Positions 28,553 through 50,170 of a stretch of 55,105 bases of DNA are shown piece after piece (positions within the stretch are counted from its first letter, which is position 1; each line of letters starts with the position of its first letter). This DNA is from a virus. Location of the stretch: UHGV virus genome UHGV-0308106. One strand, written 5' to 3'. Position numbers and translations under genes: made by a program. The notes under the pieces were generated by a model. The model ran no database searches. It was not told where the DNA came from and saw nothing but the letters and a program-made list of their open reading frames with translations.

Positions 28553-28713
28553 CAAATGTTCCCATTCCGGGGACACGGACGATTAGACAGGTGTTACAAA
28601 CGTTGGTGGTGAAATATCTTCTTGCGCTGGCGGGCACGGTGTGGTTATGATTATTTCGCACCTCACAAAACGGGTGCCGGGCGTGAGAACCCGGATAAGG
28701 TCAAAGGCGACAA

Positions 28714-28737
28714 CAGACGCCTATCGCGTCTTTTTTT
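28714..28737 (+). terminator. intrinsic terminator in leader upstream of icd-like gene
   Basis: agacgc-ctatc-gcgtct stem followed by tttttttt. Confidence 0.4.
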
Positions 28738-28931
28738 TGTCGCAATGTCAGTACCCCCATATGTAGCGGCGCAGATCCGCGCACAGAATCAATGGTGGCT
28801 CTGGCAGGGCAGCTTTCGGGCTGGCCGGTTCCCTTTGACGCCGGTATTCTCACCCCTGTCAGTGTCACCACCCTTTAGAGCGTGAGAACTCAGGTGGTGG
28901 CTCCTTAAATTAGTCAAAGGAGATCATCATC

Positions 28932-40606: not shown

Positions 40607-41157
40607 GTTTCAAAAGTGGTGTAACAACGAGGGTTGATAACGCTCAGGCCATTCTGGATGCGCTCCGGTCGCTAACCAAAAAGGATGTGCTGGTGGGCAT
40701 CCCGGAAGAAGACAGCGAGCGTGAGGATGTTCCGTTTGGTAATGCCGGGATCGGTTACGTCAACGAATACGGCTCACCAGCGCAAAACATACCCCCACGC
40801 CCGCACCTGATCCCCGGCGTTAAATCCGTAGAGGAACAGACGGTGCCGCAGCTCAAAGCAGCGGCGCAGGCTGCGCTTGATGGAAATGCGGCGGGTGCGG
40901 AAAGAGCGCTTAACCGCGCCGGAACGCTGGCCGCGAATGGTGTCAGGCGTTACATGACCATTACCGGCTTTACACCGCTTGCTGATAGCACCGTTGAAGC
41001 ACGCGCACGCCGTGGGCGCAAAGGGGCAAAAGAGGAACTTGCGCGGCGCGCTGCTGGTGAGTCTCCTGGAACCGATCTGGTGAAACCGCTAATCGACACC
41101 GGGCAATATCGCAGAGCTATTACCCATATTGTGAGGGATAAAGATGCCGACTCTTGA
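40603..41157 (+). CDS. virion morphogenesis protein, hypothetical
   Basis: 184-aa, ATGA-coupled. Confidence 0.4.
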
Positions 41158-41533
41158 TGTAACAGACGTGCTTTTTGACCCCGATTTTTGCGACTTCAAC
41201 CTGTGGGTAACGCGTCGCGCGCAAACGGTGGACGATGACGGGATCGGCAGCGACAGCGAAGTTAAAACGCAGTTTGCCGGGGTTGTTACTGTTGACCGCT
41301 CCCTGGAAAACCGCCGCATGCAGGCCGGGCAGGTTATCAGCGGCGCGATTCTCATCGTGACAACTGAGCGGCTGACGCAGGGGCAGACTGGCCGTGATGC
41401 CGATATCGTGACGTATCAGAACCGTGATTATCGCGTGACATTCGTCGACCCGTATACGGCTTACGGTGCTGGCTTCGTCCAGGCTCATTGTGAATTACTG
41501 CCGTTTGATGGGGGAACTCCCATTGAGCAATAA
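41144..41533 (+). CDS. head-tail joining protein, hypothetical
   Basis: 129-aa, overlaps upstream gene. Confidence 0.4.
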   Translation: MPTLDVTDVLFDPDFCDFNLWVTRRAQTVDDDGIGSDSEVKTQFAGVVTVDRSLENRRMQAGQVISGAILIVTTERLTQGQTGRDADIVTYQNRDYRVTFVDPYTAYGAGFVQAHCELLPFDGGTPIEQ

Positions 41534-42071
41534 CACCAGCACAGAGCGCGGCTGGCTGATACCAACCAGTGGCGATCCGGATTATGACGAAGCGCTCGAC
41601 AGGCTGCTAAGCCAGTGGATGCGCAATGTTTCCGGCTTGCCGTCTGGAATGGTTCGTCCGCGCTGGCAGAAAAATCAGCCGCCACAGCCACCCGTTGAAA
41701 CGAACTGGTGCGCGTTTGGCGTTACCGGGTTGCTCATTGATAACAACCCTGCATTCACCAATCAGACCGACGAGGGCGCTCAGCTCTGGCGGCATGAAAC
41801 GTTCGAGTGCATGGCGTCGTTCTATGGCCCGGCTGGTATGTCTTATGCGTCCCGTTTTCGCGATGGCATATCTGTCCCGCAAAACAATGCTGAGCTGAAC
41901 GCGCTTGGTTTGTCTCTGGGCGACTATACCGGTCTGACCCCTTTCCCCGAACTTATCAACCAGCAATGGGTTCGCCGCTACGACATGACGGTGCGCCTGC
42001 GCCGGAAGGTCGTGCGCGAGTACGGCATTAAATCGCTGGTGGAAGCGCCAGTCACCTTTTTTGGAGAATAA
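41508..42071 (+). CDS. tail completion protein, hypothetical
   Basis: About 187-aa from ATG 41508; immediately upstream of sheath gene. Confidence 0.4.
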   Translation: MGELPLSNNTSTERGWLIPTSGDPDYDEALDRLLSQWMRNVSGLPSGMVRPRWQKNQPPQPPVETNWCAFGVTGLLIDNNPAFTNQTDEGAQLWRHETFECMASFYGPAGMSYASRFRDGISVPQNNAELNALGLSLGDYTGLTPFPELINQQWVRRYDMTVRLRRKVVREYGIKSLVEAPVTFFGE

Positions 42072-42074
42072 ACT

Positions 42075-43235
42075 ATGACGCAGGGCTTACCTGTATCCAA
42101 CGTTGTAAACGTTGATGTGATCATCTCGCCGAAAGCGGCTACTGGTCGTAACTTCGGCGCGCTGCTGATCCTCGGTTCTTCCACTGTCATTCCGGTGCAG
42201 GAGCGCGTTCGCCTTTATGCGTCTGTTGAGGACATTGGCGAGGACTTCGGAGTCGACAGCCCGGAATATGAAGCGGCGCAGGTTTTCTTCAGCCAGTCGC
42301 CGAAGCCGACGCAGGTTTATGTTGGCCGCTGGGCGAAGACGCTGACCTCTTCCGAAGGTGGAAGCGTGGAAACCATCGTGCAAGCTGTTAATGCCTGCCT
42401 GCAGTATACCAACTGGTATGGGCTGGTTGTCGCTGATGATGTTGCTGATGGCGATGATGTGCTTGATGCTGACGACGTGATTGAGGTTGCTAAACTCATC
42501 GAAGCGTCCAGCCTGAGCCGCATTTTCGGGGTAACGTCAGCCGACGCTGAGATCATCAGCACGACTTCGACGACCGATGTTGCGTCTAAATTAAAGGCCG
42601 GTAAGTATACCCGTACCTTTATTCAATATTCCACCAGCAGCCCTTATGCGGCGGTTTCAGCTTTCGGTCGCGCGTTTACTGTCAATTTCAACGGCAGCAA
42701 TACTACCATTACCCTGAAATTCAAACAGGAACCGAGCGTAACCTACGAAACGCTGACGGTAGGACAGGCGGCGGCTGTGGATGCGAAGAATGCGAACGTG
42801 TTCGTGTACTACGCCAACGACACGGCGATCCTGCAACAGGGTGTCATGGCGAACGGTGACTTCTTCGACGAGCGCCACGGGCTCGACTGGTTGCAGAACT
42901 ACGTTCAGACCAACCTCTATAACCTGCTTTACACCAGCACCACCAAAATTCCGCAGACTGATGCCGGTGTGACCCGTCTGCTTTCCAACGTTGAACAGTC
43001 CATGGATCAGTCCGTCACGAATGGTCTGGTAGCGGCTGGCGTGTGGAATGGTGGCCCTATCGGACAGCTGAATTCCGGCGATACGCTGACCAAAGGCTAT
43101 TACGTGTATGCGCAACCGCTGTCCGAACAGGCGCAGGCCGACCGCGAAGCGCGCAAAGCACCGTTAATCCAGGTGGCCTGTAAGCTGGCTGGCGCAGTTC
43201 ATTATGCCGATGTGCAGATCAACGTGGTTCGCTAA
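42075..43235 (+). CDS. tail sheath protein
   Basis: 386-aa ORF preceding tube and chaperone genes. Confidence 0.65.
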
Positions 43236-43245
43236 GGAGCGATAA

Positions 43246-43686
43246 ATGGCAACTTATTCTTTTCTCGATGTAACCGCGTCGCTCACCGGGCCGACCGGAG
43301 TTATCGATCTTGGTCAGGGTTCTGCGAACTCTGAGGAAGGTATCACCCAGACTATGGGCGGCAACAAGAACACCATGACCATCGGTGCCGATGGCGAAGT
43401 GATGCACAGCCTGCACGCCGATAAGTCAGGCACCATTACGGTGACGCTGCTGAAAACCTCCCCGGTGAACAAGAAGCTGTCTCTGGCGTATAACGCGCAA
43501 AGCCAGTCCTCTGCCACCTGGGGAAATAACGTGATCGTCATTCGCAACACGGCATCGGGTGATATTTCTACTGCGCGTTCGTGTGCATTCCAGAAACAGC
43601 CTGATTTCAATAACGCCAAAGAGGGCGGAACCGTAGCCTGGGTATTCGATTGCGGCAAGATTGACCAGCTGCTCGGGGAGTTTTAA
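43246..43686 (+). CDS. tail tube protein
   Basis: 146-aa ORF between sheath and chaperone. Confidence 0.6.
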   Translation: MATYSFLDVTASLTGPTGVIDLGQGSANSEEGITQTMGGNKNTMTIGADGEVMHSLHADKSGTITVTLLKTSPVNKKLSLAYNAQSQSSATWGNNVIVIRNTASGDISTARSCAFQKQPDFNNAKEGGTVAWVFDCGKIDQLLGEF

Positions 43687-43689
43687 CGC

Positions 43690-44115
43690 ATGGAATTCGA
43701 AATTAAAGGCGTGAAATATCGCACCGCAAAGCTCAGCGTTTTCGAACAGCTGAAGGTGTCCCGAAAGCTGTTGCCGGTGCTGGCCGGGATGGTTTCTGAC
43801 TTCCGGAGCGTTCAGGAGAAGATCAGCAGCAAAGACACCGAAGGCGCGATGGCTACCATCCTGCCAAAGATTGCCAATGCTGTGTCCGATCTGAGCGATG
43901 GCGACGTTGACGCTATCCTGTTCCCCTGCCTTTCCGTTGTTTCACGCGAGCACATGAAAGGCTGGGTGCCGGTCTGCCAGCATGGCGAAATGGCGTTTGA
44001 CGATATCGACCTGCTGACCATGCTGCAACTGGTGGCGCGGGTGGTCGCCGACTCGCTGGGAAATTTTTTGCAAGGACTCCCTACCAGCGAGACGCCCACC
44101 CCGCCAGCGGAATAA
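43690..44115 (+). CDS. tail assembly chaperone (with probable -1 frameshift extension to about 44298)
   Basis: 141-aa ORF before tape measure; slippery-type aaattttttg at 44061-44070; -1 frame stays open to TAA at 44296-44298. Confidence 0.5.
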   Translation: MEFEIKGVKYRTAKLSVFEQLKVSRKLLPVLAGMVSDFRSVQEKISSKDTEGAMATILPKIANAVSDLSDGDVDAILFPCLSVVSREHMKGWVPVCQHGEMAFDDIDLLTMLQLVARVVADSLGNFLQGLPTSETPTPPAE

Positions 44116-44292
44116 CCTTCAACAGCCTGCCGGGCGGTGAAGACTTTATTCTTCGTCCGGCGCTTGCCTTCCATATTGACCAGAAAGACCTTAACAGCGG
44201 TGCGGTAGACCTCTGCCGTATCGCGCTTCTCAATGACTACCTCGACATGCGCGAGGATAACGACGCCCGGGTAGATAAATGGAGAGCGGCCA

Positions 44293-46560
44293 ATGAGCGG
44301 TAACGCAGATACGATTAAAGACTTCCTTGTTTCGCTGGGATTCGATATCGATCAGGCTGGCGCTAATAAGTTTGAAGCCGTGCTGAAAGGCGTTACCGCA
44401 AACGTTCTGAAGGTCGGCGCGGTGGTGGAAGGCGCAGCGCTGAGCATTGTCGGATTTACCACCCAGATCGCGAATGGTCTGGATAAAATTTACTGGGCAT
44501 CCCAACGGACGGGGGCCAGCGTCCAGGGCATCAAAGCGCTGGGCTATGCCGCGTCGCAAACCGGTGCCAGCGCCGAGTCGGCCATGTCCTCCCTCGAAGG
44601 GCTGGCCGGTTTCATGCGTAGCAATCCGGGGGCGGAAGGCTTCCTGAACCGTCTTGGTGTCCAGACCCGAGATGCCAGCGGAAAGATGCGTGATACTGCG
44701 GCCATCTTTACTGGCGTTGGGCAAAAGCTCAACAACATGCCGTATTACCGCGCGAAGCAATACGCGCAGATGCTTGGCATCGATGAAAACACGCTGATGG
44801 CGATGCGGCGCGGCATGAATGGCTTTACCGCCGATTACCAGTCTATGCTGCAAAAGACTGGGTTCAACGCTGATAAGGCGGCTGTGCAGTCCAATAAATT
44901 CATGACGTCCATGCGCGGGCTTACGTCGCTGTTCGGCATTATGCGGGACAAGATCGGCTCAAACCTCGCTGGTGGTCTTGCTGGTTCGCTGGACAGCCTG
45001 CGGCGGCGCATCCTCGACAACTTCCCGAAGATTGAAGAGACGCTGACCAGAGTTATTAAAGGCGTGATCTGGCTTGCGAACGCCTTCACGCGAATGGCGT
45101 GGCGGCTCATACAGGGCGCTGGCTCTGTCATTGACTGGTGGAAGCGTCTTGACGATGGCAGTAAAAATCTGCTGAAAATATTCGGTGCTCTACTTGTCGC
45201 ATGGCGTCTGCTTAATTCTGCGTTCCTGAAATCCCCGATTGGAATTATCACCACGCTGATTCTGGCGATCGGATTACTCTATGACGATTATCAGACGTGG
45301 AAAGAAGGCGGTAAAAGCCTGATTGACTGGTCCAAGTGGGAGCCTGCAATAGAAAAGGCGAAAAAGGCAATTCTCTGGCTGCGCGATAAGCTTCTGGGGC
45401 TGAAAGATTCTGTTGGTGGATGGCAGAACTCGCTGGAAATTTTGGCTACTTTCATCGCTGGGGTATGGGTAACAAAAGTATTGGGAGCATTCGCAAAAAT
45501 ATCCGGTCTTCCGATACCTCCATGGCTTAAATTATGGGGAGCGTATGCTGGTTACCTGGTTTCAGATCGTGAAAACATAAAAGCCAGTGCTAAATCATCT
45601 TTGGACTATACCAAAAGGAACATTGGTGATGCTCTTGCTACGGTTGGCATCAAAACCGACCTTGGGCGAAAAGATGTTAGCGAGGTAAGAGAATGGCCCG
45701 CATGGATGGATTGGCTGCATGGTGGCCCAGGTAAGATTATTCGTCAGGCGCAAAGCAATGGCGTCGTTTATGGCGATAATGTTCAGCCTGACATTCCCGG
45801 GGCGGAACAGCATGTTCGTAGTAATGAAATTGCCCCGCATGAAAGAGATGAAATAAAAAACCGTCAGCAGGCTGCTAATGGTTATCTTGAAAAAATCTCA
45901 GACGGGATTGCCAAAATCGGTAATTTATTTTTCTCCCCGGCTGGAGCTGCTGAAATCTCTCCAAATATATCGGGTGACCCCTCCCAGTTTGCGCAATCAG
46001 TCAAACGTCCACAGGCCACAGCCCAGGGCAAAGTATTGCTCGACTGGATGGGGCCAATGTTCAATAAACTTGAGTCGCTTTATCAACTTCCAGCTGGTCT
46101 ATTGAAAAGTGTGGCGATAACCGAGTCAGGTGGTAACCAGTTCGCCATGTCCGGCGCGGGTGCAAAGGGGCTGTTCCAGTTCATGGATGGCACGGCGCGA
46201 GACATGGGCCTGCGTGGTAACGATGTGTTCGACCCGGAAAAGTCAGCTCAGGCAGCCGCTAAGTACCTTAGCCAGCTATTGCGGCAGAACGGCGGAGACC
46301 TTAGCAAAGCACTTGCATCATATAACTGGGGAATCGGGAACGTTCAACGTTATGGAATGGGGCTAATGCCGCAGGAAACGCGCAATTACATTCCGAAAGT
46401 AATGAGCAATATGCCCACCAGCGCCCCGGTGATTCAGCAGGAAACGAACATTAACATCCACGGCGTTTCCGATCCTCGCGAAGCTGCCCGTTTGACTGTT
46501 GACCGTCAAAAGGGTGTGAATTCACAGTTAACCCAGCAACTCCCCGCAGGACCGAGATAA
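44293..46560 (+). CDS. tail tape measure protein with C-terminal lytic transglycosylase domain
   Basis: 755-aa; hydrophobic central segments; SLT-like ITESGGNQFAMSGAGAKGLFQFMDGTARDMGL...ASYNWGIGN. Confidence 0.8.
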   Translation: MSGNADTIKDFLVSLGFDIDQAGANKFEAVLKGVTANVLKVGAVVEGAALSIVGFTTQIANGLDKIYWASQRTGASVQGIKALGYAASQTGASAESAMSSLEGLAGFMRSNPGAEGFLNRLGVQTRDASGKMRDTAAIFTGVGQKLNNMPYYRAKQYAQMLGIDENTLMAMRRGMNGFTADYQSMLQKTGFNADKAAVQSNKFMTSMRGLTSLFGIMRDKIGSNLAGGLAGSLDSLRRRILDNFPKIEETLTRVIKGVIWLANAFTRMAWRLIQGAGSVIDWWKRLDDGSKNLLKIFGALLVAWRLLNSAFLKSPIGIITTLILAIGLLYDDYQTWKEGGKSLIDWSKWEPAIEKAKKAILWLRDKLLGLKDSVGGWQNSLEILATFIAGVWVTKVLGAFAKISGLPIPPWLKLWGAYAGYLVSDRENIKASAKSSLDYTKRNIGDALATVGIKTDLGRKDVSEVREWPAWMDWLHGGPGKIIRQAQSNGVVYGDNVQPDIPGAEQHVRSNEIAPHERDEIKNRQQAANGYLEKISDGIAKIGNLFFSPAGAAEISPNISGDPSQFAQSVKRPQATAQGKVLLDWMGPMFNKLESLYQLPAGLLKSVAITESGGNQFAMSGAGAKGLFQFMDGTARDMGLRGNDVFDPEKSAQAAAKYLSQLLRQNGGDLSKALASYNWGIGNVQRYGMGLMPQETRNYIPKVMSNMPTSAPVIQQETNINIHGVSDPREAARLTVDRQKGVNSQLTQQLPAGPR

Positions 46561-47471: not shown

Positions 47472-48536
47472 ATGTCTCTTAACTGGATGCGCCATTTTGA
47501 GTTGCAGCTGTTGGACCAGAACGGGCAGGGTATTTCCCTGTCTGATTTTAAGGTCACGTTCCAGATCGAGTGGGCAGATACACGCTGGCCGCGCGTGGCA
47601 AACGTGAAAATTTACAACCTTTCGACCGATACCACGAACAAGATACTGGGGCAGGAGTTTGCAAAAATTCGCATCATTGCCGGGTATGACGGTATTGCGC
47701 CGGATGTTGATGCGAGCCAGGTTGGTGTCGCCCGGGAGATTTCACCAGACCAGGTAGGGCAGGTGAACGGTCAGAACTACGGCCTGATATTTGACGGTGA
47801 TATTCGCTTCACCGTCACCGGGAAGGACAACATCACCGATTCCTGGGTGCTGATTCAGGCCATCAGTAACCACGAAGCGTTCCTCTACGCGACTACCATC
47901 ACCACGCTTGCCGCTGGCTATACCGTTGCGGATCTGCACCGGGCGACGATGCAGGATTTCAACGCGTTCGGCGTGACACAGGGCATTACCGGCGATTTTC
48001 CTGATACCGTGTTTCCTCGTGGCCGCGCGATTTACTCATCCAGCCGCAACGTGATGGATAATATTGCTGCGCAGTGCAAAGCGACATGGCAACTGGTGGA
48101 TGGTCAGGTCCAGATGGTGCCGGAGGATAAATATATTCACGAAGCCATTGTGTTGAATGCCAATACTGGCCTGATCGGTATGCCGCAACAAACGATGGGC
48201 GGCGGAGTAAACGTGCGGTGCCTGATAAACCCAAACATCCGTATTAATGGTCTTATCCAGCTCGATCAGGCTTCGGTGTACCGCGCCACGCTCGGCAATA
48301 GCGAAATAGCACAGTCGCCCGGGCGTATCACCGAAACAGAAGAGAACGGCAACCGTGTGCTGACCGGCACGACGTCACAGGCTGCCAGCATTGCGACGGA
48401 TGGCGTTTATATCGTCAAAGCTATCGACTATACTGGCGACACCAGAGGTCAGGCGTGGTACATGGATTTGATGTGTTTTGCGCGTGGCGCTCGTGATCTT
48501 TATAGCCCGAAAGCAATGCAAGGGACGACGAATTAG
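47472..48536 (+). CDS. baseplate hub-like protein
   Basis: 354-aa; position before gpV-like spike, as Mu gp44; paralog in nested element. Confidence 0.5.
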   Translation: MSLNWMRHFELQLLDQNGQGISLSDFKVTFQIEWADTRWPRVANVKIYNLSTDTTNKILGQEFAKIRIIAGYDGIAPDVDASQVGVAREISPDQVGQVNGQNYGLIFDGDIRFTVTGKDNITDSWVLIQAISNHEAFLYATTITTLAAGYTVADLHRATMQDFNAFGVTQGITGDFPDTVFPRGRAIYSSSRNVMDNIAAQCKATWQLVDGQVQMVPEDKYIHEAIVLNANTGLIGMPQQTMGGGVNVRCLINPNIRINGLIQLDQASVYRATLGNSEIAQSPGRITETEENGNRVLTGTTSQAASIATDGVYIVKAIDYTGDTRGQAWYMDLMCFARGARDLYSPKAMQGTTN

Positions 48537-48548
48537 TGAGGTGGGGCC

Positions 48549-48893
48549 GTGAGACATTTACTTTGCACTGTTACCGTGTTCGCGGTGCTTATATCAGCAC
48601 CCGCTTTTGCGGATCAGCAATGTGGTGATTTTAAAATCCATTGGGCAGATGATGGCTTAGCCAGAATCAATGGCGCAAAGCCAGAAATGCAAAAAATCAC
48701 CTTCCTGAAAAACAAAGGCGATTATAACAATATCAAGATGGATTGGCGTATGGCTACCGATCAGCCTGGAAGATGGGTTGGTCTTGAGTACATCAATCGA
48801 AACGGCAAAGCCATTCTCAACGCACAGTGGTTGCAAGCCAGCATGGATTCGCCGCGTCAGTATGCAACATACGACTGCCGAAAAGTAAAATAG
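48549..48893 (+). CDS. secreted small protein
   Basis: 114-aa; signal peptide MRHLLCTVTVFAVLISAPAFA; two Cys; C-terminal DCRKVK. Confidence 0.5.
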   Translation: MRHLLCTVTVFAVLISAPAFADQQCGDFKIHWADDGLARINGAKPEMQKITFLKNKGDYNNIKMDWRMATDQPGRWVGLEYINRNGKAILNAQWLQASMDSPRQYATYDCRKVK

Positions 48894-48916
48894 CCCGCCA
48901 GATAGGCGGGCATGCG

Positions 48917-49207
48917 TCAAAAATATTGAGCTTTAATTATAATAAACACAATAATTACGAACAGGATGTTTCTAATTATTTTTTGCTTATGAGTAAGTTG
49001 TTTTTTTTCTGTCGATTTCCCGGGAGAGTAAAGGTTAGTGGTATGCGACAGCCCCGTGCCGGGAAGGCCATTTGTCATCTTTACGCCTTTTTTCCCGATG
49101 TTAATGGTGGAACCTTTACCACCAATTGAAGTGCTTACTCCGCTTTTACTAATGTTGATCGCGAGTCCGGGCGCAATCCGGATTCTTTTACGAAATCTAA
49201 ATCCCAT
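48917..49207 (-). CDS. DUF4236-like protein (antisense moron)
   Basis: 96-aa; RIAPGLAINISKSGVSTSIGGKGSTINIGKKG; C-terminal TM; AT-rich; hairpin terminator at 48895-48912. Confidence 0.45.
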   Translation of the reverse strand: MGFRFRKRIRIAPGLAINISKSGVSTSIGGKGSTINIGKKGVKMTNGLPGTGLSHTTNLYSPGKSTEKKQLTHKQKIIRNILFVIIVFIIIKAQYF

Positions 49208-49429
49208 TTGTTACTCCTGTAGTCAATAATGCGATGGTGCAGGTCCACTCTATGGCGGCTTCATGGCTGAAATTGATTTTCAATGCTTACTTGTTGCAAA
49301 CATATCCTAATACACCTTGTGAATGTGTGCCATTGCAGCGGAAAAGCCTTACTTCACACTGATGTAGCTTAGTTACTAAGAGATAATTGATACCAAACCA
49401 GCTTCGGCTGGTTTTTTTATGGGGGTTTT

Positions 49430-50170
49430 ATGCCAATTCCAACTCAATCACAGATCGGCGGTGAGCAGCAGACCGCGCAGGCCATTGCCGATTCGGTGTC
49501 GACCCAGATGCGCGTAGCGATGCCCGGCATCATTCAGTCGTTCGATCCTGAGACTGTTACCTGCACAGTAGAGGTGGCGCTACGCGGTATTGTTGGCGAT
49601 GGATCCACCGAATTAAAACCGCTGGTGGATGTGCCGGTCATCTTCCCGCGCGGCGGCGGTTGCACGCTGACCTTTCCGGTAAAAGAAGGCGACGAGTGCC
49701 TCCTGATTTTTGCTGACCGTTGCATCGATTTTTGGTGGCAGAGCGGCGGCGTTCAGGAGACCGTCGACCCGCGCCAGCATGACTTATCTGATGCGTTCGC
49801 CATCGTTGGCCCGCAGTCGCAAGCACGGAAAATCAGCGGTATCAGTACCAGCGCCGCGCAGCTGCGAACCGATGATGGTGCGGCGTTTGTAGAAGTCGCC
49901 GCAGGACATAACATCACCATTAAAACACCGGGCCAGCTTACAGCTACGGCTGAAGGTGGAACGACAATCACATCCCCGACTATCACGCTGAACGGCAACG
50001 TAACGATTAATGGCAACTTGTCTCAGGGAATGGGCGAAAGCGGCGGTACTGCGACGATGCTTGGGCCGGTGACGGTAACGAATGACGTAACAGCTTCTGG
50101 TATCAGTGTCGCCACGCATAAACATGGCGGAGTACAGACTGGCGGGGGAACTACCGGAGGGCCGCAATAA
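49430..50170 (+). CDS. baseplate spike protein gpV-like
   Basis: 246-aa; FPRGGG, C-terminal THKHGGVQTGG; followed by W/J/I-like genes. Confidence 0.75.
   Translation: MPIPTQSQIGGEQQTAQAIADSVSTQMRVAMPGIIQSFDPETVTCTVEVALRGIVGDGSTELKPLVDVPVIFPRGGGCTLTFPVKEGDECLLIFADRCIDFWWQSGGVQETVDPRQHDLSDAFAIVGPQSQARKISGISTSAAQLRTDDGAAFVEVAAGHNITIKTPGQLTATAEGGTTITSPTITLNGNVTINGNLSQGMGESGGTATMLGPVTVTNDVTASGISVATHKHGGVQTGGGTTGGPQ

Follow-up and report, generated by a model that had tools for sequence, protein, structure and literature searches.

Probable programmed -1 frameshifting in the gene for the tail assembly chaperone of a prophage related to Citrobacter phage Omnitron

In phage lambda, a -1 shift on G_GGA_AAG yields two products, G and GT, from one start and in a fixed low ratio (Levin et al. 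1993; Xu et al. 2004, 2013, 2014, cited in PMC5009743), and, as described in the latter source, G binds the tape measure whereas T binds the tube protein. The E/E+E' frameshift of phage P2 is described as a -1 shift on TTTTTTG with no downstream RNA structure (Christie et al. 2002, cited in PMC3091744), and its efficiency is reported to be 2-3 fold above that of lambda (PMC5009743). A purely computational case is the chaperone locus of Pakpunavirus/Vandenendeviridae and Andersonviridae, which contains a conserved GTTTTT motif (PMC12846349). In two phages encoding homologs of the protein analyzed here, Klebsiella phage Mulock (CPT_Mulock_014/015; MN098327) and Burkholderia phage Magia (gp16/gp15), joined coding sequences are annotated as 'tape measure chaperone frameshift product'; both frameshifts are known from database annotation only, and that of Mulock is not mentioned in the genome announcement of this phage.

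The tail module and the -1 frame

The window, that is, the whole stretch of 55,105 nucleotides that was analyzed (virus genome UHGV-0308106), contains a prophage with 99 % identity to Citrobacter phage Omnitron, whose record carries no annotation. Genes for the sheath, tube, chaperone and tape-measure proteins follow one another on the plus strand (table 1), with the chaperone gene in the position typical of G/GT genes, and a scan for promoters and terminators from the chaperone gene to the tape-measure gene found none. The 0-frame product of the chaperone gene (hereinafter G) is assigned to the tail assembly chaperones by both Pfam and PHROG profiles. In the AF2 model of G (pLDDT 80.8), the fold ends at a helix formed by residues 108-128, and residues 129-141 are disordered. 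A Foldseek search seeded with this model retrieved predicted viral 'tail assembly chaperone' structures (E = 3e-9, TM 0.81) and, in the PDB, no match below an E of about 1; a profile search of PDB sequences for relatives of the chaperone and an NCBIfam search each found nothing.

Table 1 Features of the chaperone locus (window coordinates)
Feature	Coordinates	Strand	Product	Family matches and remarks
Sheath gene	42075-43235	+		DUF3383, PHROG 205
Tail tube gene	43246..43686	+		KPP10_Orf10/DUF3277 (Pfam, E = 5.8e-60); PHROG 280; directly 5' of the chaperone gene
Tail assembly chaperone G, 0 frame	43690..44115 (TAA 44113-44115)	+	141 aa	PF21822 Phage_TAC_15 (E = 4.4e-33; cut-off 22 bits); PHROG 1688 'tail assembly chaperone' (E = 3e-57)
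-1 frame, open region	44001-44303		100 sense codons	TGA at 43998-44000 just 5'
Slippery block G_GGA_AAT_TTT_TTG	44058-44070	+		Three overlapping in-phase X_XXY_YYZ heptamers
Heptamer G_GGA_AAT	44058-44064	+		
Heptamer A_AAT_TTT	44061-44067	+		
Heptamer T_TTT_TTG	44064-44070	+		
T6 run	44064-44069	+		
-1 frame extension T	44067..44303 (TAA 44301-44303)	+	78 aa for a shift on A_AAT_TTT	DUF6889 (PF21829; 44.4 bits, cut-off 23.9, E = 1.3e-11), matched over about 44181-44288; PHROG 4364 (E = 7e-17)
Predicted fusion GT	join(43690..44067,44067..44303)	+	204 aa	Deduced from its parts; junction ...SLGNF-FARTPYQR...
Tape-measure protein gene	44293..46560 (ATG 44293-44295)	+		PHROG 2276 'tail length tape measure protein' (E = 7e-220); C-terminal SLT lytic transglycosylase domain (Pfam SLT, E = 1.2e-24)

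The original prediction, which proposed a frameshift in a standard chaperone arrangement ahead of a tape-measure gene, correctly placed the end of the 0-frame reading frame at 44115 and recognized that the -1 frame is open across the slippery run, looks protein-like and overlaps the start of the tape-measure gene. Indeed, the -1 frame encodes a conserved domain of 77-78 aa that matches DUF6889 and PHROG 4364, and the overlap amounts to 11 nt, as it does in most of the related loci. Two boundaries have to be revised. The -1 frame opens upstream of the run from which it was said to be open, and its stop was placed at 44296-44298, a triplet that reads AGC and forms codon 2 of the tape-measure gene; given the actual TAA, the feature runs 5 nt past the end coordinate originally assigned to it.

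In the predicted fusion, residues 1-133 match PHROG 1688 and residues 151-204 match PHROG 4364. Natural in-frame fusions of G and T were not found among the best 150 matches in a search of 1.84 billion representatives; most of these matches break off around residues 127-133, not far from the slip site. Two short contigs of the Logan assembly database (P0148 and P0165) cross the junction in frame, but the match to T is lost soon afterwards, and we attribute them to probable homopolymer sequencing errors. An AF2 model of the 204-aa fusion was discarded (pLDDT 48.9); the underlying alignment mixed database proteins containing only G with those containing only T. The remaining frame (+1/-2) was also considered as a source of an extension and rejected: in the window, it continues for just 8 codons beyond the stop, and in relatives for a variable 2-60.

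Conservation of the -1 frame among relatives

For comparative analysis, we assembled 66 genome loci (43-100 % identity) which, together with phage Mulock, made a set of 67; the loci were retrieved by degenerate peptide patterns that left the codon choice unconstrained. Codons were counted in 41 non-redundant homologs, and the statistics on peptides and codon positions were computed for 59 distinct sequences. The -1 extension is 75-82 aa long in 66 of the 67 loci, the exception being one locus (L029) in which it is truncated to 37 aa. In the -1 frame of the 59 distinct sequences, the entropies of the three codon positions are 0.74/0.60/1.38, that is, variability is concentrated at the third position. 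Upstream of the slip site, the variable position is position 3 of the 0 frame, and immediately downstream, it is position 2 of the 0 frame, which is position 3 of the -1 frame. Over the 12 codons past the slip, amino acid identity is 56 % in the -1 frame vs 36 % in the 0 frame, and the peptide that directly follows the slip, ARTPR/Y, is conserved, with an invariant Arg two codons past the slip. Thus, exactly at the slip site, the 0 frame gives way to the -1 frame as the target of purifying selection.

These data bear on the trivial possibility that an open -1 frame and a slippery-looking run met by chance, with 44116-44292 being a non-coding spacer. Such a coincidence could be entertained given how often long alternative frames stay open past gene stops in the window, but it is already contradicted by the matches to Pfam and PHROG families together with the comparative data, namely codon periodicity and amino acid conservation over the 59 distinct sequences and a frame that is open in 66 of the 67 loci, and we assign it a negligible probability.

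More substantial is the suggestion that the -1 frame is a small gene in its own right ('DUF6889 family protein'), expressed through a start codon of its own or through reinitiation once the chaperone stop has been reached. This is how databases tend to present it: in E. coli AW1.7, PGAP places a DUF6889 CDS of 27 aa at the corresponding site, public databases contain DUF6889 entries of 42-75 aa that stand alone, and in the phages BgManors32 and ZHS the downstream frame is annotated on its own. However, the -1 frame of the window has a single canonical start codon (ATG, GTG or TTG), which is 18 codons from the stop and within the conserved DUF6889 core, so that initiation there would lose about 60 conserved residues. 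Nor is there a conserved start among the relatives: across the 67 loci, the distance from the first possible start codon to the stop ranges from 18 to 126 codons (18, 24, 31-32, 37-39, 50, 58, 62 or >110 codons), and the lengths of the database stubs differ in line with this. Furthermore, the -1 frame is under selection from the slip site onward, 15 codons before the chaperone frame ends, the invariant Arg included. The -1 frame therefore overlaps the 3' end of the chaperone frame without a conserved start of its own, and we consider a separate gene highly improbable compared with entry by a -1 shift.

The slip site

The block at which such a shift would occur comprises three overlapping in-phase heptamers. 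The original prediction had pointed to aaattttttg at 44061-44070; that sequence is present, but the in-phase block starts 3 nt earlier. Among the genes of the window, in-phase heptamers number 50 in 14,748 codons, or about 1 per 295 codons. In only one other of the 56 crude gene predictions does an in-phase heptamer fall within the stretch over which the -1 frame runs open through the gene stop. This is the tape-measure gene, with A_AAG_GGT at 46509, near its end; the -1 frame at that point belongs to the following gene, which has an ATG of its own, and we dismiss this case as chance. As a general observation, long open alternative frames past stops are common in the window, mostly because the next gene occupies that frame.

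The codons of the block are conserved beyond what the protein sequence requires. Gly-Asn-Phe-Leu is encoded by GGA AAT TTT TTG in 35 of the 41 non-redundant homologs, compared with an expectation of about 0.2 %, derived from the shares of these codons in their synonymous families in the rest of the same genes (GGA 11 %, AAT 37 %, TTT 49 %, TTG 11 %; product 0.0023), and the 13-mer of the block is identical in 33 of the 41. Column by column, the frozen codons are GGA (39/41), AAT (39/39), TTT (40/40) and TTG (37/38), in contrast to other conserved columns, which are mixed. Deviations do occur: a Salmonella locus (L062) has GGA AAT ATT TTG, which lacks the favored heptamer, another locus (L061) retains T_TTT_TTG only, and Edwardsiella phage ZHS has no heptamer. 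In distant phages, an in-phase heptamer is kept at the homologous LG(N/P)F position, but the T run is not: Burkholderia phages Magia and BgManors32 have C_CCT_TTT, Acinetobacter phage Ab105-1phi has G_GGA_AAT_TTT, a Ralstonia phage has G_GGT_TTT_TTC, and a Bordetella phage has G_GGA_AAT within the block GGGAAATAC, which contains no T run.

This pattern is also relevant for transcriptional slippage, in which an additional U inserted by RNA polymerase at the T6 run would generate a minority of mRNA with G and T in frame. There are indeed six T at the site, and a 1-nt insertion would give the same GNFFARTP product. Efficient slippage by bacterial RNA polymerase, however, generally needs runs of about 8-9 or more, and we did not observe a long homopolymer conserved whatever the phase: the run is T6 here, only four T in the Burkholderia and Acinetobacter phages, and absent from the Bordetella phage. 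What the deep relatives conserve is the in-phase X_XXY_YYZ heptamer, not the homopolymer, which favors ribosomal slippage over slippage of RNA polymerase. The freezing of GGA and AAT, upstream of the T run, counts against the polymerase as well, because slippage on the T run would not need these codons. Hence, we regard transcriptional slippage as quite improbable.

A search for stimulatory elements of the kind associated with IS3/IS911/dnaX-type signals (a conserved 3' hairpin or pseudoknot, or a clear Shine-Dalgarno-like element) found none. RNAalifold detected no conserved structure in the 41 sequences (consensus energy -1.28 kcal/mol); the best fold of the window is 63.6 % paired across the homologs vs 63.4 % in shuffled controls, without covariation, and its z-scores are only -1.9 and -2.3. 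Inspection by eye revealed no clear Shine-Dalgarno-like element upstream. In the window fold, the slip site lies in the loop of a long hairpin (44052-44059 paired with 44083-44090), which we rejected since the pairing is lost where a Ser codon changes from TCG to AGC or AGT.

Proposed frameshift and comparison with known systems

Taken together, the heptamers, the conserved -1 product, the frozen codons and the switch of the selected frame support, at the sequence level, the programmed -1 frameshift that the original prediction called probable, and computational support for a shift of the G/GT type at this chaperone is good. We estimate at roughly 0.88 the probability that a -1 slip on the block by a minority of ribosomes yields the 204-aa GT, with the majority producing the 141-aa G. 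The sequences show that the -1 frame is coding, that it lacks a conserved start codon, that the slip site is constrained at the nucleotide level and that the selected frame changes there; the ribosomal nature of the shift, the heptamer used, the efficiency and the roles of G and T are inferred. In the proposed scheme, a minority of ribosomes would move back by 1 nt on G_GGA_AAU_UUU_UUG, at the end of the folded domain of the chaperone, and continue in the -1 frame to the TAA, producing a protein that consists of chaperone residues 1-126 and the 78-aa DUF6889 domain; the unshifted majority would complete the 141-aa G. The shift most likely takes place on A_AAU_UUU, while Asn-tRNA occupies the P site and Phe-tRNA the A site, which would result in the junction GNF-FARTP. 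Among the most efficient heptamers in E. coli are those of the form H_HH.U_UU.Y, where H stands for U, C or A and Y for U or C (PMC4066793), and both A_AAU_UUU and the C_CCU_UUU of the Burkholderia phages belong to this class. U_UUU_UUG, the heptamer of phage P2, could offer a second chance, with the junction GNFL-ARTP. The predicted tryptic peptides differ accordingly: VVADSLGNFFAR across the junction for a shift on G_GGA_AAT or A_AAT_TTT, VVADSLGNFLAR for a shift on T_TTT_TTG, and VVADSLGNFLQGLPTSETPTPPAE for the 0 frame; DAHPASGITFNSLPGGEDFILRPALAFHIDQK is an example of a peptide predicted from the T domain.

On the model of lambda G/GT, we would expect the G part to form a coat on the tape-measure protein and the T part to bring in the tube protein, which at a fixed G:GT ratio might let the tail polymerize to the right length. 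A more specific proposal is that the tandem slip site, with its three registers, sets the G:GT ratio without any RNA structure, in that the ribosome could shift at any of three consecutive opportunities, and yields both the GNFF-ARTP and GNFL-ARTP isoforms, the orphan family DUF6889 being the frameshift-encoded, tube-recruiting T domain of Phage_TAC_15 chaperones; we put this forward tentatively and consider it doubtful in this full form.

The slip site is strongly conserved and the chaperone frameshift very probably real, yet such a shift is an ordinary, well-known feature of phages, and the current understanding of tail assembly is not changed by it. Its main value lies in correct annotation. 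The long chaperone isoform is absent from the records of this prophage group: the E. coli counterparts of the window prophage are annotated without a frameshift, and other records contain the 42-75 aa fragments labeled 'DUF6889 family protein' or, wrongly, 'lytic transglycosylase'. Recognition of the frameshift would give DUF6889 a role, that of a C-terminal extension of the tail assembly chaperone. Furthermore, a deeply conserved, structure-free enterobacterial slip site could be used to test frameshift-prediction tools and to study tandem slippery sites.

Among the described systems, lambda shares the logic of the arrangement, and G_GGA_AAT, the counterpart of its slip site, is the first of the three heptamers here; lambda, however, is a siphophage whose protein belongs to an unrelated family, so the roles of G and T carry over by analogy only. 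Phage P2 is, like the present case, a contractile-tailed enterobacterial phage whose shift, likewise on TTTTTTG, takes place close to the end of a small chaperone gene flanked by the tube and tape-measure genes. No sequence similarity to P2 was detected, though, the P2-type families are absent among the Pfam and PHROG matches, the T domain is a different one (DUF6889), and TTTTTTG sits here within a longer triple heptamer. The Pakpunavirus/Vandenendeviridae and Andersonviridae are myophages with related tail modules, and the case made for them follows the same argument, namely a -1 frame that is open in all alleles and routinely mis-annotated as a separate hypothetical gene, next to a T-rich slip motif (PMC12846349); their chaperones belong to another protein clade, and the motif is GTTTTT as opposed to GGGAAATTTTTTG here. 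Magia encodes a homologous protein in the same gene order, and the shift annotated there is placed at the homologous position, on C_CCT_TTT. Finally, Mulock encodes a homolog with about 56 % identity to the predicted fusion and shares with the prophage of the window the sheath-tube-chaperone-tape measure gene order, an identical GGAAATTTTTTG block and an overlap of T with the tape-measure start that is likewise 11 nt long.

Tail module and chaperone gene

The contractile-tail module of the prophage, delineated by Pfam and PHROG matches, lies on the plus strand of the window and includes Dit-like, plug and hub genes along with the components listed in the table. Its profile matches identify the 141-aa ORF as the tail assembly chaperone (G). 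This ORF ends at 44115, exactly where the original prediction had placed its end, and the slippery-type sequence aaattttttg was likewise correctly located at 44061-44070. For G, the AF2 model (pLDDT 80.8) matched predicted viral chaperone structures, and structure and profile searches found no solved structure for any G homologue. The last folded element of the model is a helix spanning residues 108-128, with slip codons 124-127 at its end, followed by a disordered 0-frame tail (residues 129-141).

Features of the prophage discussed in the text (window coordinates)
Feature	Coordinates	Strand	Matches and remarks
isrK Hfq-binding RNA	28658-28736	+	Rfam gathering-level match, 61 bits
C4 antisense RNA	28788-28875	+	Rfam gathering-level match, 79 bits
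129-aa ORF	41144-41533	+	without Pfam match
Neck/tail terminator	41466-42071	+	PF23961; listed from first GTG
Sheath	42075-43235	+	Pfam DUF3383, PHROG 205
Tube	43246-43686	+	KPP10_Orf10/DUF3277
Tail assembly chaperone, 141 aa	43690-44115	+	PF21822 Phage_TAC_15 (E = 4.4e-33); PHROG 1688 (E = 3e-57)
Open −1 frame	44001-44303	+	100 sense codons; TAA at 44301-44303
Slippery block	44058-44070	+	G_GGA_AAT_TTT_TTG
Tape-measure protein, 755 aa	44293-46560	+	SLT lytic transglycosylase domain
Baseplate hub	47472-48536	+	
114-aa ORF	48549-48893		signal-peptide-like N terminus; without Pfam match
DUF4236 gene	48917-49207	reverse	
Spike	49430-50170		

The 129-aa ORF overlaps the neck/tail terminator ORF by 68 nt, and the true start of the latter is probably further downstream than listed. 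At approximately 48400-49600, between the hub and spike genes, the GC content falls to 0.44-0.48, and this region resembles an insertion of a moron (added non-structural gene cassette) into the tail module. Elsewhere in the prophage, the adjacent isrK and C4 matches are predicted to represent a P1/P7-type immunity RNA pair.

Coding status of the −1 frame

The original prediction described a −1 frame that remains open up to an overlap with the tape-measure start, which is correct (the overlap with the tape-measure ATG is 11 nt), but placed its stop at 44296-44298 instead of the actual position given in the table. The protein-like appearance of the translation was borne out by matches to Pfam DUF6889 (44.4 bits, cut-off 23.9) and PHROG 4364, and by codon-position entropy. 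For comparison, 71 loci were taken from one-genome-per-species bacterial contigs using degenerate peptide patterns that left codon choice unconstrained, and phage records from tblastn hits were added. In 66 of the 67 analysable loci (protein identity 43-100%; Escherichia, Enterobacter, Pantoea, Photorhabdus, Rahnella, Cedecea, Yersinia-like and others), the −1 extension (T) is 75-82 aa long, and in most cases its end lies 11 nt into the tape-measure gene; in Enterobacter sp. R1 (locus L029), a premature stop shortens it to 37 aa. The 59 distinct extension peptides could be aligned over their whole length, and conserved positions run from 'ARTPR/Y' directly after the slip to '...DN.aRi..WR..NER'. 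Downstream of the chaperone stop, the −1 frame codon-position entropy is 0.74/0.60/1.38, the signature of a translated frame. These data show the −1 frame to be genuinely coding.

The alternative to an extension of G is a separate gene in this frame. In the window, no ATG, GTG or TTG occurs in the −1 frame until 18 codons before the stop, and across the loci the first possible start is found 18, 24, 31-32, 37-39, 50, 58, 62 or >110 codons before the stop. Furthermore, −1 frame selection starts at the slip site, 15 codons 5' of the chaperone stop, in agreement with the end of the fold in the G model. Variability is seen at 0-frame position 3 upstream of the slip site and at 0-frame position 2 (that is, −1 frame position 3) directly downstream; over the 12 codons after the slip, mean peptide identity is 56% in the −1 frame versus 36% in the 0 frame, and the Arg two codons past the slip is invariant (41/41 sequences). 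The −1 ORF therefore does not appear to be an independent gene.

Database 'DUF6889' entries are ragged (42-75 aa), with some mislabelled 'lytic transglycosylase' (among database proteins P0121-P0147), and at E. coli AW1.7 NZ_CP073624 (locus L002, 1621-1704) PGAP annotates only a 27-aa DUF6889 stub. The length of such stand-alone entries (27-75 aa) is set by the chance position of a start codon. Entries under both names are best interpreted as fragments of the predicted frameshift product, and the orphan family DUF6889 as the T domain that Phage_TAC_15 chaperones gain by frameshifting in the predicted fusion (GT). Two Logan short contigs (P0148, P0165) run from G into T in one frame; the T match is lost soon after the junction, and the probable explanation is sequencing error in the T run, not natural in-frame fusion.

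Slip site and likely mechanism

Read in the 0 frame, the site is CTG GGA AAT TTT TTG, and the slippery block contains three X_XXY_YYZ heptamers in succession, all of them in phase. The window genes have roughly one in-phase heptamer per 295 codons. Among 56 crudely delineated genes, only one other, tape-measure, has such a heptamer with the −1 frame open across its stop, a trivial case because the frame there belongs to the following gene, which has an ATG of its own. Codon usage was analyzed in 41 sequences, made non-redundant at 88% identity across the 161 nt that surround the slip site. Conserved-residue columns are normally mixed in codons (Phe18, TTC 30/TTT 11; Asn74, AAC 25/AAT 10) and Leu columns elsewhere are mostly CTG, whereas Gly124-Asn125-Phe126-Leu127 are encoded by GGA (39/41), AAT (39/39), TTT (40/40) and TTG (37/38). 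The combination GGA-AAT-TTT-TTG was observed in 35/41 sequences, against an expectation of 0.23% given the codon usage in the rest of these genes, and 33/41 carry the complete 13-mer GGGAAATTTTTTG, a pattern that shows nucleotide-level selection on the slip site.

Local folds in the window have only a modest advantage over shuffles (z = −1.9 and −2.3). Across the 41 sequences, RNAalifold yielded essentially no consensus structure (−1.28 kcal/mol), and for the best window fold the share of paired cells among homologues is 63.6%, versus 63.4% in shuffled controls. The slip site accordingly shows no conserved stimulatory RNA, which matches lambda and P2, whose shifts do not depend on a structure.

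Variants within the family bear on the choice of heptamer. L033 (GGT AGT TTT TTT) retains only T_TTT_TTT, with a −1 frame stop just 5', and L061 (GGT GAT TTT TTG) only T_TTT_TTG; in L064 and L069 the site ends in TTC. In L062 (Salmonella enterica s1, 1891-1902), GGA AAT ATT TTG leaves only G_GGA_AAT, and here, as in L029, the system may be weakened or broken. The architecture persists in distant phages (30-40% identity), together with an in-phase heptamer at the homologous 'LG(N/P)F' position: Burkholderia phages Magia and BgManors32 have C_CCT_TTT, Acinetobacter phage Ab105-1phi has G_GGA_AAT_TTT, a Ralstonia phage has G_GGT_TTT_TTC and a Bordetella phage has G_GGA_AAT alone. The frame change could, in principle, come from RNA polymerase slippage on T6; what relatives conserve, however, is the phased heptamer, whose A-site codon is most often Phe UUU, and not a homopolymer run, and ribosomal slippage is therefore favoured.

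Heptamers of the H_HH.U_UU.Y class (H = U/C/A; Y = U/C), to which A_AAU_UUU and C_CCU_UUU belong, are among the most efficient in E. coli, and UUY codons in the A site shift better than UUR (PMC4066793). The P2 E/E+E' site TTTTTTG has been established by experiment and functions without downstream structure (PMC3091744). Given the variants, these efficiencies and the P2 site, we rank A_AAU_UUU first and U_UUU_UUG second: the main shift would occur on the former (junction GNF-FARTP), with a back-up shift on the latter (GNFL-ARTP).

Relation to known frameshift systems

Gene order, the conserved −1 frame and the frozen slip codons support the predicted −1 frameshift in the chaperone before the tape-measure gene. 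At least 37 complete genomes of E. coli carry the prophage, with no frameshift product among the annotations listed for them, and Citrobacter phage Omnitron, 99% identical to it, has an unannotated record. For the homologues in Mulock and Magia, existing records already contain joined CDSs named 'tape measure chaperone frameshift product', and the slip block of Klebsiella phage Mulock is identical to that of the window; the paper announcing Mulock says nothing about the frameshift. The same line of computational reasoning was applied in a 2025 paper to the related Pakpunavirus chaperone locus, with a GTTTTT motif (PMC12846349). The modest additions made here are the frozen triple-heptamer slip block, the lack of a conserved RNA stimulator and the reading of DUF6889 as the T domain. 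The arrangement is identical in kind to the textbook G/GT chaperone frameshift (PMC5009743), and the predicted fusion would be an unannotated example of this very well-known kind of recoding.
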